DNA from: Gemmatimonadaceae bacterium
GTDB taxonomy: Bacteria; Gemmatimonadota; Gemmatimonadetes; Gemmatimonadales; Gemmatimonadaceae
NCBI GenBank assembly: GCA_035544855.1
Contig: DASZZU010000060.1
Location: forward strand, 1-60,702
DNA length: 60,702 nucleotides
Reading direction: 5' to 3'
Shown one piece after another: positions 1 through 51,433 of this stretch. Position numbers and translations under genes: made by a program. The notes under the pieces were generated by a model. That model was not told where the DNA came from. It did not search any database and worked only from the letters and a program-made list of their open reading frames with translations. Position 1 is the first letter of the stretch. Each line of letters begins with the position of its first letter.

Positions 1-350
1 TTGACCGCGTACGAGCGCCACACGCGAAACTGCCGGTCGTTGACAATCGGATGTGTTATCTCGTAGCGAAGCGATGCCTCGCGAATCCGGGGCGTCTCGC
101 GCTCGGCGATATATTTGCCGCTGTGCACTCCGATAACGGCTACGCCGTCAGGATACTGCTTTTCGATCTCCCGCAACTGCGGAAGAATGTGCACGCAGTT
201 GATTCATCCGTAGGTCCAGAAATCCAGAAGGACTACCTGGCCCCGAAGTCCTTCCAGCGTGACAGATTCTCCACCGGTATGAATCCAGTCGAGGCCCGGC
301 GGAAATTCCAGTGCGCGAACGCGGGGTAACTCAGAGATTGGTCGCGACAT
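1..350 (-). CDS. TlpA/DipZ-like thioredoxin-fold redoxin (N-terminal part, possibly NHL-repeat type), probable selenoprotein; runs off the window edge
   Basis: ATG at 350. Reading through TGA 204-206 gives ...VVLLDFWTYG-U-INCVHILPQLREIEKQYPDGVAVIGVHSGKYIAERETPRIREASLRYEITHPIVNDRQFRVWRSYAV, open to position 1. This matches the family motifs DFWTYxCINC, VIGVHS and YxITHPxVND. Confidence 0.88.
165..188 (-). promoter_or_regulatory. Candidate bacterial SECIS hairpin
   Basis: Minus strand TCTTCCGC-AGTT-GCGGGAGA (186-167): 8-bp stem with one G-U pair and an AGUU loop starting 26 nt after the UGA. Confidence 0.55.
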
Positions 351-356
351 AATCGT

Positions 357-1367
357 ATGGCTCAACAAAGAATGCGCCTTCCCGCCCATCATCGGCCAGG
401 AGGTGGTTTTCGGAATCCGTGGCCGTCCGCGCAGATGCACGGATTTCTTGATTTTCTTAAATGGTCATTGATCGAGCGACGGCGAAATCCGCGCCGTCCC
501 GACCCCGACCCAAGTGTGTTCACGCAGGTGGCTCCTGCGTACATCGTTCCACGATCGGCTCCCGATCTGTTCACTATTACCTGGATCGGACACACCAGCT
601 TCCTTATCCAGATCGCCGGACTCAACGTCCTGACAGACCCTATCTGGAGCGAACGCGCTTCACCGGTACAGTTCGCCGGACCGAGACGATGGGTGCCAGC
701 CGCGGTGGACTTTGATCGCCTGCCGCCGATCGATGCCGTAATTCTTTCACACGACCACTACGACCATCTCGACTCGTCGACGGTATCACGCCTCGCGGAG
801 CGTTATCCAGCGACGAGGTGGTACGCGCCGCTCGGGGTGGGAGACTTTCTCCACCGCCGCGGGGCACGTGACGTCATGGAGCGTGACTGGTGGGACGAGA
901 GTGCGCTCGGAGAGCTGCACTTGACCTGCCTACCCGCTCAACACTTCTCGGGACGAACCCTCGGGAAGCGAAACACCACCCTCTGGTGTGGTTGGTCGCT
1001 CCGCACCGCCGGTCGCTCGCTCTTCTTTGCCGGGGATACCGCCCTTCACCCGGATTTTGGCTCTATCGCCACGAGATGCGGTCCCTTCGATGTGGCGATT
1101 CTGCCCATTGGTGCTTATGAGCCTCGCTGGTTCATGGGTTCCGTGCACATGAACCCGGAAGATTGCATCAACGCCGTCGACCAACTGGAGGCCGGCCAGT
1201 ATGGAACACGGCTTGTGATGGCTGCGGCTCATTGGGGGACTTTCAAGCTCACGGATGAACCGATGGAGGAACCGCCGACACGGATGCGCGAGCGGTGGCA
1301 GGCGGCCGGGCGTGACGGCAAAGACCTCTGGATTATGCGACACGGTGAGACTCGCGTCATGCCGTGA
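357..1367 (+). CDS. MBL-fold metallo-hydrolase (NAPE-PLD-like)
   Basis: Motifs TWIGHTSFLIQ, LTDPIWSER, SHDHYDHLD, PAQHFSGR, FAGDT, LPIGAYEP, HWGTF. Confidence 0.9.
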   Translation: MAQQRMRLPAHHRPGGGFRNPWPSAQMHGFLDFLKWSLIERRRNPRRPDPDPSVFTQVAPAYIVPRSAPDLFTITWIGHTSFLIQIAGLNVLTDPIWSERASPVQFAGPRRWVPAAVDFDRLPPIDAVILSHDHYDHLDSSTVSRLAERYPATRWYAPLGVGDFLHRRGARDVMERDWWDESALGELHLTCLPAQHFSGRTLGKRNTTLWCGWSLRTAGRSLFFAGDTALHPDFGSIATRCGPFDVAILPIGAYEPRWFMGSVHMNPEDCINAVDQLEAGQYGTRLVMAAAHWGTFKLTDEPMEEPPTRMRERWQAAGRDGKDLWIMRHGETRVMP

Positions 1368-1480
1368 TCCGAATGCGTTGTTTCGGCGAGTTGTTGCATC
1401 GCCATACTGTGGCTCTTCACCTTGTCTTGTGCGCGAATCTTGCTATCGGTTCTACAGACCCTCCTACACGGAGCTTTCCA

Positions 1481-1858
1481 ATGGCTGCAGCCAAGAAGTC
1501 CAGTAGTCGAAGTGGTGGTAGAAAGAGGTCGCGGTCCGGAGCCTCCGGACGCAAGAGCGGACGCCGCAAAGCCGCCGGTCGGAAGCGGTCAGGCAAGAGC
1601 CGCTCGGCCAGCGCCCGCAAGTCTTCAGGCGCGAGAAAAAAATCGTCGCGGCGGAAGGGCGGAAGAAAATCTTCCTCGGGTCGCAAAAGCGGGGGGCGCA
1701 AATCCTCTTCGAGGAAGAAGAGCAGTCGCCCTCGTCGTAGATCACAGTCTCCCGTGGCTCGCGTGAAACGTGTTGCAACGGGTGTAGTCCAACAGGCCGC
1801 TGGCTTCGGCGAGCGCGCCGTCGATACCGTTACGGAATTCGTCCAGGATCGCTTTTAG
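1481..1858 (+). CDS. Highly basic K/R/S/G-rich protamine/histone-like protein, 125 aa
   Basis: GGAG at 1470-1473 before ATG 1481. 38 of the first 87 residues are K/R with no acidic residue. Ends in a helical-looking tail. Confidence 0.75.
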   Translation: MAAAKKSSSRSGGRKRSRSGASGRKSGRRKAAGRKRSGKSRSASARKSSGARKKSSRRKGGRKSSSGRKSGGRKSSSRKKSSRPRRRSQSPVARVKRVATGVVQQAAGFGERAVDTVTEFVQDRF

Positions 1859-2709: not shown

Positions 2710-3504
2710 TCACTGATGCGACAGCTCTCTCGTCATCGACAGCGCTGAATCATTGTCGTGTCCGTTGCCGAGCCCGGTAGCGAGGGAGTTGGGCTCGATC
2801 AGGAACGTCATCCCTTTTCTCTCCGCGATTCCAGCCGACACGAGTCGGCTAAGCGCCAGCGCAATCGACTCGCGGGTCGCGCCGACCATCTCGCAGAGAA
2901 GGCGCTGATGGTTGTTCTCGAGCTTGAGCCGCCCGTCATCTGTCGTGAAGCTGCGATCAGTGCTGAGGTGTGAAAGCGTGGAGATCAGCCGCTGGTCGAC
3001 GTTCAGCGCCGCTAGCTCGTGCAGCTTCTCCAGTAGATACGCGCGCTCGGACATTATCTGCGATAGCAATGGAAGCGTTTGGCCGGGCTCCTCTCTCACG
3101 AACGCGCGAAACTGCGCTCCGCTAAGAAACAGAGTCTTCGTCTCCTCCGATGCGCTGGCGTCGGTTACATAATCACTGTTCGGCGACAGACCTTCGCTTC
3201 CGAATGTCTGTCCCGCGGTAGCGATTACGGGAACGAATCCGCGTCCGACTTTGATCTTGTTGCGCAGAACAATGTGCCCATTCAGAACAACGAAGACTCC
3301 GTCTGCCGCTGCACCGCGTTGATAGAGCTGGAATCCGGCTGGCCACGTTGTCTTCGCGCCGTACGCGGCAATCGGTACTACTTCTTCCGGAGTGAGACAT
3401 GACTGTCTCACTTCTGCTCGCGCAGTTCTCGTCAACTTTCGTCCATTCTTGCTCTCATCAATCACGATCATCGCAATGTCTGGGCCTGAGACAGCACGCG
3501 TCAT
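2710..3504 (-). CDS. Crp/Fnr family transcriptional regulator
   Basis: cNMP-binding-like region (LYQRG...GQTFGSEGL) and C-terminal HTH (EMVGATRESIALALSRL). Confidence 0.85.
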   Translation of the reverse strand: MTRAVSGPDIAMIVIDESKNGRKLTRTARAEVRQSCLTPEEVVPIAAYGAKTTWPAGFQLYQRGAAADGVFVVLNGHIVLRNKIKVGRGFVPVIATAGQTFGSEGLSPNSDYVTDASASEETKTLFLSGAQFRAFVREEPGQTLPLLSQIMSERAYLLEKLHELAALNVDQRLISTLSHLSTDRSFTTDDGRLKLENNHQRLLCEMVGATRESIALALSRLVSAGIAERKGMTFLIEPNSLATGLGNGHDNDSALSMTRELSHQ

Positions 3505-3516
3505 GCGAGCTGCATT

Positions 3517-5613
3517 TCAGTTTTTCTGTAGCAATCCTGTTGCCATCTGCAACGCTCGCGTTGCCGCATCGAAGCGTTGAGCGATGTCGGTCAGCTCCCG
3601 AGCGGTTGCTGTTTCGTCGCCAAGTCGAATTGCTTCGTTTACCGATGGCAGCACCATCGTCGAGTAGCCGTTGTTCTCGTCAGCGGCGTAAATGAGGTTT
3701 CTGAACCACGGCCGTGACACCAGTCCCTGCGCTCTTGTAAGCTGTCGTTCAACTCCGAGAAGCGTAGAGTTCACCTGCTTCGCGGTCACGGGCGACAGTT
3801 GAGCCGCAAGCGCGCGATCGCGCGCAGCTGCAAAAGTCACGGCTGCGCTTTCCATTCTTCCGACGGCTCCGGATAGTTCGGCAGTGGACAATTTCCAATG
3901 CTTATCGGAGATTGTCTGAGCTACCTGCGAAGCGAAACGCTTCATCGTGCGCGCGTATTCCACGTAGTCGTACGGCAGAATCTCGGAGTTGGCGAGCCTC
4001 AGTAGCGTGGCCGCGCCAATGCGCGCATTCGTCGCATGAAACTCGAAATTCGGGTCGCCGAATTTCGACATCCAATGATAGGAGTCGTACGCGGAGTGGT
4101 AGACACCCTGCGGTCCGCCAAATCCCCAGTCAGCGATCGGAATTCCGAGATGATTGTAGAAACCCGCGAAGTCGGAGCCGCCACCGGGGTCGCCCATTTG
4201 TGGCTCGAGTGTGTCAGCTGCGAGATTCGCGCGTTTTCTCCAGACATCGTACACGCTGCCCTGATGACTCGGGTCAGGCACTTCCTTGGCGACATCACGC
4301 AGCAGCCCGCGTAACGATGGTGATCCGCCTCCGCTGAAGTTCGGCCCCTGAGCAACATCATCCTGATTGAGGTAGGCGATCGCGCTCCTGCTCAGGCGCA
4401 GCGAATCTTCCTCGACGAATTCAGTCGAGCCGAGCAGCCCCCACTCTTCGGCGTCCCACGTCGCGAATATGATCGTGCGCTTCGGTCTCTTCCCTGCCTT
4501 GACCTGCTCGGCGATGGTTCGCGCCGCTTCGAGCACACTGACGGTGCCGCTGACGTTGTCGGCCGCTCCAGGTCCCCACGCATCGCGATGGCCGCCTACT
4601 AGCACGATCTCATCCGGAAATTCCGCTCCGCGAATTGTTCCGAATGTGTCCCAGATCTGTTTGTATGGATTCGTGCTCGCATCGGTCGTCACCGCAATTC
4701 GGGCCTGTACCGGTCCGGGCCCGACGTGGTACCTGAAGGGAAGACCGCCCTGCCACGGCTGAGGAATCGATTTTCCGGCCAAGCCGCGAAGCAGCTCGGC
4801 CGCATTCCCATACGAGACGGGCAGCACCGGAATGTGCGGAATGTCCATTTCGCCGACCGGGATCCGCCGCGCGTTCGCTGTGCTCGGATAACCGGGGGTA
4901 CTCGGATCACCATTCGGATTCATGACGCTCCCACGCTGAATTCCGTGCGATGGTCGCATCGGGCCGACGGGATAAACGTCGCCGCGTACGTATCCATCGT
5001 CGGCGGGATCGCTGTAGATGATCAGACCGACTGCTCCGTGTTTCTCCGCCTCTCTTGCCTTGATGCCCCGATATGATCGCCCGTACCGTGCTACCGCGAT
5101 TTTGCCCTTGACTGACACACCCATCGAATCGAGCTGCGCGTAATCCTCGATCAGCCCGTAGTTCACGTAGACGACATCTCCACGAACATCGCCCGCCGCA
5201 CCATAGCCATTGAATGGCGTTACTTGTGGATACGCAGAAGAGGTTGTGTCCTCGGGAACAACTCCCTCTTTCAGATCGAGCTCGATCGGACCGGGCGCGA
5301 TCCGCCAGATTCGGGTGCTCACAGGGTGCGGCATCCAGACCCTGTAAGAGCGCACCTCCGTCTCGAGCCCCCACGATTTCATCTGGTTGATCACATAGTC
5401 GCGAGTTCGCGCCTGCGCTGGTGTTCCAGCCATGTGTGGCTGGAGCGAAAGAAATCTCGAGTGCGCTGAAGCGCTCGACGGCGAGGGCCGTGTGATTGCG
5501 TCTGCTTCCGTCGCCCGCTCGGCAACTGCTGCTTGCTGAGAGTAGCCCGGAGTCGTCTGCGCCCGAACCGGCAGAGCCAATGTGAGGATTGCAATCAGAA
5601 CAAGCTTATTCAT
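3517..5613 (-). CDS. Secreted M28 peptidase, glutamate carboxypeptidase II-like (PA and TfR dimerisation domains)
   Basis: Signal peptide; PHMAGT, YVNYG, GGHRDAW, DNVSG, WDAEEWGLLGSTE, GSDF, YHSAYD. Confidence 0.92.
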   Translation of the reverse strand: MNKLVLIAILTLALPVRAQTTPGYSQQAAVAERATEADAITRPSPSSASAHSRFLSLQPHMAGTPAQARTRDYVINQMKSWGLETEVRSYRVWMPHPVSTRIWRIAPGPIELDLKEGVVPEDTTSSAYPQVTPFNGYGAAGDVRGDVVYVNYGLIEDYAQLDSMGVSVKGKIAVARYGRSYRGIKAREAEKHGAVGLIIYSDPADDGYVRGDVYPVGPMRPSHGIQRGSVMNPNGDPSTPGYPSTANARRIPVGEMDIPHIPVLPVSYGNAAELLRGLAGKSIPQPWQGGLPFRYHVGPGPVQARIAVTTDASTNPYKQIWDTFGTIRGAEFPDEIVLVGGHRDAWGPGAADNVSGTVSVLEAARTIAEQVKAGKRPKRTIIFATWDAEEWGLLGSTEFVEEDSLRLSRSAIAYLNQDDVAQGPNFSGGGSPSLRGLLRDVAKEVPDPSHQGSVYDVWRKRANLAADTLEPQMGDPGGGSDFAGFYNHLGIPIADWGFGGPQGVYHSAYDSYHWMSKFGDPNFEFHATNARIGAATLLRLANSEILPYDYVEYARTMKRFASQVAQTISDKHWKLSTAELSGAVGRMESAAVTFAAARDRALAAQLSPVTAKQVNSTLLGVERQLTRAQGLVSRPWFRNLIYAADENNGYSTMVLPSVNEAIRLGDETATARELTDIAQRFDAATRALQMATGLLQKN

Positions 5614-50047: not shown

Positions 50048-51433
50048 CTAGTGTTGGCGACGAGCGCTGACCGAGAGAAATTCCGTTTCGCTCGGTCGAG
50101 TCAACCTCCATCGCCCCGCATCCTCATAAAAGACGAGCTGCGAGTTGTATTGACGATACTGCCAGATCTGAAGGCGGGCAGCGGAGGCAACCTGTGTCGG
50201 TGAGAGCGTTTGATTGACACTCCGATCGAATATCTCGTCAGGCTCTCCCAGCGCAACGAAAACCATCCCGCGATCAGATAGCCATCCAGGATTCCGATCC
50301 ATTCTGAATTGGGCGTTGGCTTGCTGAATCCTCCCAAAGTAGGCCTGCAGGTCTTCGTTCGTAGGGGTTTCCGGAATTGGGTCGGTTGCACGCAGAAACT
50401 CTGCCCACATTGTTGCGCGTTTTTCCAAAGGAGCGTTTCGAAGCGCGCTGAGGCGGGAGGGATTTGCAAAGAATCGCAGGTAGCCGACCATGTCTTCGAA
50501 CGACATGAGGGGAATGTCTTCGCCAAAGCTCACGAACAGCGGTGCGTCTACGCTGTCTGCACCTCCCGCATCACGACGAGTAAAGAAGACCCGGGCAATT
50601 CCCACCCCAACAGTTGAAATCGGAACATTCACGACGCCGCTGAAGAGCGCTCCGTTCCGTCCCAGCGCGGCGGAGTCACGCCATATCTGGGCACCCTTGT
50701 CATTCCGCACGACGAAGTTGACAGGAAGCCGAACGCCCTGCCCATAACCTTCGACATAGATCGCTACGGTGCTGTCGCGACCAAACACCGCGCTCGAACG
50801 GGGACTGGCCAGCAATCGCGGAGCGGAGTCCAGAACCGAGCGGCCAGTTGCTTCATAAACAAGGGTCGGAGTGGACAGACGTCCTGCGACTAGGGATGGT
50901 ACCGTGACCGTAGCTTGCTGAGACGCAGCACGGGATCCGCCAACATCGCGAACCGTCGCTGAGAGAGTGTACACGCCGGGCGGGATATGAAAATAGTGTT
51001 GGAAGATCACGCTCTCATCTGTACGGTTGGTTTCTCTAAATGAGCCAACGCGCACTATCTCCATCACATTTACATTCGCCGCCTCAATTCCACCCCGAGC
51101 AAGTATAAGCTTCACTTCGTAAGGAGCGCGATATCTGTCGCCTTCCCTCGTGAAGGTGAGGGCGCGGTTGGGAATCGAGAGACTGGCCAGAACGAGTGTT
51201 GTATCAGGAGAGGCGCTGGCAAAGAAAGAGAGCCTTCCCACGAATGCAAGCGGGTTTGGGGCGGCCAGTAAGCCAATCTGCCGATAGATGTCGCTCATAT
51301 CGGGGGCTGGACTCCCCTCTGGCGGTAGGGCCCGCGGGTTGGGTTGGGAGTTTCCACCCGATGTTGCAGAGCTGCACGCGAGAGCTGAGGCCAGAACCAG
51401 CAGCCCCGAAAAACATTTCTTGAAAATCAGCAT
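50048..51433 (-). CDS. GWxTD-domain lipoprotein
   Basis: ALAC lipobox; DPIPETPTNE..YFGRIQQAN, GWLSDRGMVFVALGEPD, WQY. Confidence 0.85.
   Translation of the reverse strand: MLIFKKCFSGLLVLASALACSSATSGGNSQPNPRALPPEGSPAPDMSDIYRQIGLLAAPNPLAFVGRLSFFASASPDTTLVLASLSIPNRALTFTREGDRYRAPYEVKLILARGGIEAANVNVMEIVRVGSFRETNRTDESVIFQHYFHIPPGVYTLSATVRDVGGSRAASQQATVTVPSLVAGRLSTPTLVYEATGRSVLDSAPRLLASPRSSAVFGRDSTVAIYVEGYGQGVRLPVNFVVRNDKGAQIWRDSAALGRNGALFSGVVNVPISTVGVGIARVFFTRRDAGGADSVDAPLFVSFGEDIPLMSFEDMVGYLRFFANPSRLSALRNAPLEKRATMWAEFLRATDPIPETPTNEDLQAYFGRIQQANAQFRMDRNPGWLSDRGMVFVALGEPDEIFDRSVNQTLSPTQVASAARLQIWQYRQYNSQLVFYEDAGRWRLTRPSETEFLSVSARRQH

Follow-up and report, generated by a model that had tools for sequence, protein, structure and literature searches.

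The recoding of UGA to selenocysteine (Sec) is textbook knowledge, and Sec, where it occurs, is nearly always the catalytic redox residue. NHLRC2, a human protein linked to FINCA disease, carries a CCINC motif whose second cysteine is Cys90. The structures of human NHLRC2 (6GC1, 6G7W) and of the lumenal region of Arabidopsis SOQ1 (7DJJ, 7DJK) display a thioredoxin (Trx)-like domain with an xCINC motif and a six-bladed NHL propeller, an architecture shared by the bacterial orthologues described below. The available part of a report on NHLRC2 (PMC6107167) describes a conserved cleft, an absence of insulin-reduction activity and the existence of bacterial homologues devoid of the C-terminal domain, and the available part of a study on SOQ1 (bioRxiv 2024.11.01.621559) describes a redox-active C431–C434 pair and its relay to a C-terminal domain that has Msr activity.

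The window, that is, the whole 60,702-nt stretch of DNA that was analysed, lies at the start of contig C60, in a genome of 2.88 Mb (342 contigs, 93% complete), and begins with the 5' part of a gene of this type with a TGA codon in frame. This TGA is very probably a genuine ancestral Sec codon, accompanied by a predicted SECIS, in a gene of the NHLRC2/SOQ1 type, of which the strain keeps an allele that carries three downstream lesions and is likely a decaying pseudogene.

The in-frame TGA and the 5' region of the gene

On the minus strand, the ATG at position 350 (start codon, 348–350) opens a frame that reads DFWTYG, TGA (206–204, codon 49) and INCVHILPQL, and that stays free of stops after the TGA up to the contig end on the side of position 1, as the initial annotation had reported. 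This 5' part of a Trx-like plus NHL gene (3–350, minus strand, codons 1–116) runs off the end of the contig, and the remainder falls in a 500-nt gap and on contig C293, at whose right end the allele is broken. The TGA (204–206, minus strand), predicted to be Sec49 of a UxxC motif (G-U-I-N-C), aligns with the second cysteine of the CCINC of NHLRC2 and SOQ1, in agreement with its earlier placement at the first Cys of a CxxC pair. The TGC codon at 195–197 (minus strand) encodes Cys52, the likely resolving cysteine, and is identical in all nine same-genus copies.

A methionine is found at the same distance from the TGA (U = residue 49) in 8/8 orthologues, and a GTG in frame further upstream, at 440, was discarded as a start codon, since the orthologues begin at the Met equivalent to that at 350. 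No clear Shine-Dalgarno sequence was seen upstream of 350, and the first ATG of a divergent ORF with a metallo-beta-lactamase fold is placed only 6 nt from the ATG of the gene (window 350–357). Codon 14 (309–311, minus strand) encodes Leu in place of the Pro present in the 7/7 orthologues that cover the region and in strain X8, which is a sign of relaxed selection.

The base call at the TGA, for which a check against reads had been proposed, was compared with contigs X1, X4, X6 and X8, which come from four studies and cover 204–206. These contigs differ from the window at 1, 2, 5 and 8 positions, respectively, none of them at 204–206, although X1 is possibly the window's own source and hence not independent of it. 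Therefore, the TGA is not an assembly error.

The neighbouring genes are not co-oriented with this one (the metallo-beta-lactamase-fold gene is divergent and an aldo/keto reductase gene convergent), and the two give no functional clue. The aldo/keto reductase gene (L052:143–1252, equal to C293:24642–25751, plus strand) abuts the 3' end; it adjoins the orthologue in genomes G006 and G020 too, and was not found at the G030 locus. Further along the window (1364–1858, plus strand) lies a histone-like ORF, very rich in Lys, Arg and Ser, a 37-aa stretch of which is 92–95% identical in G030, G027 and L058.

Protein family and structural model

The profile PF13905 scores over its cut-off for the Trx-like part encoded in the window, which holds the GUINC motif, and the WPT sequence of the cis-Pro loop is present in P0139, a predicted protein that is described below; the orthologue of G030 shows PF13905 together with NHL repeats. 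A phmmer search with the orthologue P0133 gave SOQ1 (E 8e-81) and NHLRC2 (E 8e-67) as the best matches of solved structure, with U49 placed on the second Cys of CCINC. The model of the orthologue (pLDDT 90) gave TM values of 0.85 to 6GC1 and 0.87 to 7DJK, and the six-bladed NHL propeller, incomplete in the window's allele, is complete in the model of P0133. The same-genus orthologues, of 477–484 aa, end with the propeller and lack the C-terminal Cys-pair domain of the SOQ1-type Msr relay. A search of the own genome with the PF01436 profile gave no match, the NHL part being placed mostly inside the assembly gap.

Two affiliations had been put forward initially. The NHLRC2/SOQ1 type is the one that the phmmer and TM values sustain, whereas membership of DipZ/TlpA was rejected. 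Mycobacterium DipZ (2HYX, 5CYY) has a related Trx-like domain (E 8e-23) whose match covers residues 13–166 only, TlpA likewise matches nothing beyond the Trx domain, and DipZ, like TlpA/ResA, has no NHL propeller, unlike the Trx+NHL orthologues. The NCBIfam models for TlpA and ResA give 21–55 bits against cut-offs of 170–230, and no NCBIfam model reaches its cut-off for the Trx+NHL protein.

Conservation of the TGA codon among relatives

A close orthologue (63–81% identity) was found in 8 of 36 same-genus genomes, many of which are incomplete, and the TGA is placed at residue 49 in all eight. Seven of them are full-length (477–484 aa) and one is cut by its contig; selA is present in the eight genomes that bear the orthologue and in 32/36 congeners overall. 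At the family level (150 genomes) an orthologue was found in 38, with one in-frame TGA in 31 and no stop in seven, a proportion that includes three unpublished genomes and becomes 28/35 without them. For the seven orthologues free of stops, selA was detected in three genomes and none was found in four; it was not found either in the TGA holder G190 (92% complete). Among 79 metagenome loci scored out of 80, the codon is TGA in 29 and Cys (TGC/TGT) in 50; L077, a TGA form missed by the motif, stands outside these counts. The TGA/TGC pairs among relatives, for which a tblastn search had been suggested, do exist.

A DNA pattern encoding FWTY-x-TGA-(I/V/M)-N-C occurs at no fewer than 119 places in the genome collection. 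Among the 119 matches listed, 63 are of the Trx+NHL type, 39 run to the limit of the retrieved flank or of the contig, and 17 are shorter. The TGA forms of Trx+NHL belong to Gemmatimonadota, Chloroflexota, Actinomycetota, Methylomirabilota, Armatimonadota and Planctomycetota (taxa as given in the genome records). For 35 loci picked across lineages from the 119 listed, selA is over its cut-off in 32 of the 35 genomes and below it or not found in the other three. The sequence CU(I/V/M)NC appears in 44/116 full-length TGA rows, for instance in the Chloroflexota loci L139, L140, L150 and L154.

Fourteen of the 17 shorter matches (14/80 loci with long flanks) are stand-alone FWTY-x-UINC redoxins. 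All of them (L143, L147, L148, L153, L157, L159, L163, L173, L175, L176, L190, L196, L205 and L217) end 107–115 aa past the TGA. They are distributed over Methylomirabilota, Binatia, Chloroflexota and Proteobacteria, several of them with the same hairpin core (see below), and may form a second subfamily that is not listed.

On a FastTree built from 155 full-length rows after masking of the trait columns (unrooted, and with the three unpublished genomes left out), five changes between U and C are needed, and the Cys forms G138 and G241 nest within the TGA clade that holds the genomes of the family. On this topology, the TGA appears to be ancestral within the clade. The nearest orthologues in the tree carry Gemmatimonadaceae labels, and the analysed genome probably comes from that family.

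A predicted SECIS hairpin that tracks the TGA

A closer inspection of the sequence past the UGA revealed a feature that the initial annotation did not mention, a predicted bacterial SECIS at 167–186 (minus strand) with an 8-bp stem and an AGUU loop (178–175), placed 25 nt after the UGA. At −12.6 kcal/mol, this hairpin falls within the four criteria published for bSECIS, which, as given in the Fig. 2 legend of PMC13188914, comprise a loop of 3–9 nt with a G in its first two positions, a stem of 4–16 bp, a distance of 16–37 nt from the UGA and an MFE ≤ −7.5. The folding z-score is −3.3 for window 150–206 and varies with the stretch folded, the four stretches giving −3.3, −1.4 (140–206), −3.2 and −2.6.

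The nine same-genus copies all have the same codons at +8 to +11, whereas only 12 of their 168 amino-acid-invariant columns are also codon-invariant, and the core of the hairpin is kept in 8/8 same-genus orthologues. In the metagenome loci, the 12-nt core is present in 28/29 TGA forms and in 0/50 Cys forms; likewise, 6–7 of the 7 stem pairs can form in 29/29 TGA loci, and at most 4 in the 50 Cys loci. The core was also seen in 86 of the 119 genome loci listed. Outside Gemmatimonadota the register of the hairpin is looser, with 7/7 pairs in 81 of the 119 loci listed. The Cys revertants G138 and G241 do not carry the core.

Over 34 diverse rows, 78.6% of the cells are paired and 22 cells show both-side changes vs 9.6 in shuffled alignments (0/500 shuffles), although the relatedness of the rows inflates tests of this kind and, in the same 34 rows, the number of stem pairs that show double changes does not exceed that of the shuffles (202 of 500). 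The register of the stem beats every slid register on both the cells paired and the covariation score.

A sequencing error at the TGA, or a Cys codon recently turned into a stop by mutation, is extremely improbable. Cys forms exist, and a nonsense change would be plausible in a gene in decay; against this, the identical TGA is found in four studies, in 8/8 congeners with the gene and at 119 or more genome loci, the hairpin tracks the TGA, and the tree has the TGA ancestral in the clade. The conservation data already contradict an origin by error or nonsense mutation, and argue for a genuine Sec codon.

Sec machinery in the genome

The genome carries selA (576 bits in a profile search) and selB, which scores over its cut-off and is stop-free across two overlapping contigs. 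The overlap (C28:1–849 and C4:1–849) is only 96% identical, which shows that the bin mixes close strains. The selD gene (C342:20549–21664) contains an in-frame TGA of its own (SCAGUASK) and is directly followed by the tRNA-Sec gene, found by both ARAGORN and Rfam RF01852 (69 bits vs a gathering value of 47). Thus selA, selB, selC and selD are all present in the genome, as had been supposed from the window alone.

Two extra "tRNA-SeC" calls (one on C31, the other at window 50599–50675, minus strand) came from relaxed ARAGORN only and were rejected, being absent from the RF01852 list; the call in the window is likely false. A peroxiredoxin/BCP-like gene (C157, ~3220–3815, minus strand, TGA at 3574) with an RTKGUT motif (TxxU), a downstream hairpin and a signal-peptide-like N-terminus probably encodes another selenoprotein of this genome, one that belongs to a known family. 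An ad hoc scan of the whole genome for UGA plus hairpin motifs produced mostly noise and was set aside.

Lesions in the allele of this strain

A tblastn search placed the 3' part of the gene at the right end of C293, where a Trp codon is replaced by TAG and the sequence TIVG jumps to HRIMV in another frame. The join between C293 and C60 is established by bridging contigs and by synteny. A single contig of X1 (3421 nt, depth 19.6) spans the C293 end, with 0 differences, and window 1–600, the gap between them being 500 nt; an X8 contig likewise bridges the two pieces, and genes of both C293 and C60 flank the orthologue in five relatives (G030, G006, G020, L058 and L081). P0139, which clusters with the window's fragment and comes from a 3421-nt contig, matches exactly at both ends, has 37 codons missing and ends at the TAG. 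Its link to X1 consists of the equal size of the source contigs (3421 nt) and these exact end matches, and the 37-codon deletion is derived from this one predicted protein and the arithmetic of the 500-nt gap.

When compared with P0003, an intact allele of 481 aa once the 5' part is included, the own allele lacks 111 nt, in frame, and 236 nt, the loss of which shifts the frame. The orthologues keep an open frame to the normal C-terminus of the family; the own allele stops at the TAG after 330 codons, so that its read-through would give 330 aa. When mapped on the model, the losses take away blades 5–6, half of blade 4 and two of the strands of blade 1, and leave the Trx domain whole. Besides this domain, the read-through product would retain two blades in full and two others by half, and judging from the model it is not likely to form a closed propeller of six blades.

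Several other alleles of this lineage are also damaged. A 41-codon deletion is present in P0136 and P0138 and a frameshift in P0002. Strain X8 shows a 115-nt frameshift deletion within the Trx domain (a single contig, by arithmetic from contig comparisons), and X6 an insertion of 1 nt plus a deletion of 234 nt that spans the UGA (a single contig). The loose contig ends in X1, X2 and X8 (single contigs each) suggest near-whole-gene deletions. The TAG codon and the deletion junction recur in X4; X2 has the TAG, and X8 has TGG.

The bin mixes strains, intact alleles exist at 91–94% identity (P0003, P0134 and P0135), and X2 pieces hold undeleted sequence at the junction, all of which would fit a gene that is intact in the living strain, with lesions produced by strain mixing or mis-assembly and with the full 481-aa selenoprotein made, as the initial annotation held. 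Nevertheless, a single contig at depth 19.6 spans from the window to C293 with both the TAG and the junction, a contig of depth 3.9 from another study (X4) shows these same features, and the intact alleles differ from the own allele at 17–26 of 278 residues, which makes an intact gene very unlikely.

The own allele still has an undamaged UGA, SECIS, CINC motif and WPT loop. Together with the in-frame nature of the first deletion and with the stand-alone forms at 14/80 genome loci with long flanks, this would be consistent with an allele that still works as a shortened selenoprotein, whose 330 aa with a complete UxxC Trx domain would resemble the stand-alone xUINC redoxins. We consider this unlikely, given that the substitutions P14L and D126N fall at Trx-domain sites that are near-invariant (conserved in 7/7 and 48/49 rows, respectively), that the sister strains X8 and X6 carry lesions inside the Trx domain, and that loose ends are seen in X1, X2 and X8.

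The simplest reading of these sequences is that the gene is undergoing loss in this lineage, with the UGA and the SECIS left as ancestral features, and that the own copy is likely a decaying pseudogene that has lost its function. The initial annotation would then be right for the family and probably wrong for this allele. A working Sec49 protein is not supported here in view of the 37-codon deletion, the TAG and the 236-nt frameshifting deletion. The prediction that automated annotation would split the gene or call it a pseudogene holds for the split; the label "pseudogene" is probably correct in this strain, for reasons other than the TGA.

Proposed mechanism in the intact orthologues

Decoding in the intact orthologues would follow the standard bacterial scheme, in which SelB, loaded with Sec-tRNA, would bind to the hairpin located 25 nt past the UGA and insert Sec49. 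The selenolate of Sec49 may attack an oxidised sulfur, in the form of a disulfide, a sulfenic acid or a sulfoxide, on a protein placed in the Trx/propeller cleft, the role of the propeller cleft being perhaps to select this protein substrate. Cys52 would then resolve the intermediate and a cellular reductant would reset the pair, by analogy with C431–C434 of SOQ1. As the SOQ1-type C-terminal domain is absent, the acceptor would have to be another protein.

Comparison with known systems

Literature searches of open-access papers returned no Sec form of the NHLRC2/SOQ1-type family. The term "NHL" is absent from the available main-text portions of PMC13188914, PMC9312934, PMC2398784, PMC13326102 and PMC12013277, which include 2026 and 2022 reviews and the GOS paper, and UINC is absent from four deep-Sep supplements. 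Members may be filed under generic Trx labels in BSepDB.

On balance, we favour the view that the NHLRC2/SOQ1 type constitutes an unlisted selenoprotein family of at least six phyla with one SECIS core, which appears as CUINC in many Chloroflexota members and is being lost in this lineage, and that Cys90 of NHLRC2 is the nucleophile of a substrate-specific oxidoreductase. Since Sec nearly always marks the catalytic residue, a Sec form would be evidence on the unsettled biochemical function of NHLRC2. If this view is correct, CUINC is the exact Sec counterpart of the human CCINC in many Chloroflexota members, and the locus shows several independent deletions in one soil lineage that keeps the Sec machinery. 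The chemistry can be tested on the bacterial Sec/Cys pairs, which are small, soluble and devoid of the C-terminal domain. The FWTY motif is missing in 119/120 database homologues among the matches listed, as expected if the entries start after the TGA, and the databases would in this way lose the active site of these proteins. The locus adds a copy caught in decay, a wider range of phyla, and the CUINC and stand-alone forms.

The listed bacterial UxxC selenoproteins ("thiol-disulfide isomerase-like", cd02966/PF13905; "Redoxin family protein", PF08534; and "Prx-like", PF00578) share with this gene a TlpA/redoxin-type fold, decoding by SelA/B/C/D and a stem-loop just past the UGA. In contrast, the representatives in the deep-Sep table differ in their motifs and lack an NHL domain, with 0 occurrences of FWT and of UINC in that table, and the "Redoxin family protein" (PF08534) was rejected as the same family on its representative sequence. 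The closest likeness is to NHLRC2 and SOQ1, from which the orthologues differ in being devoid of the C-terminal Cys-pair domain and of any HAD or transmembrane part, and from which the window's own allele differs further in being short of about half the propeller. At the active site, the second Cys of CCINC in NHLRC2 and SOQ1 is replaced here by a predicted Sec, and in the window's gene this Sec is preceded by Gly.
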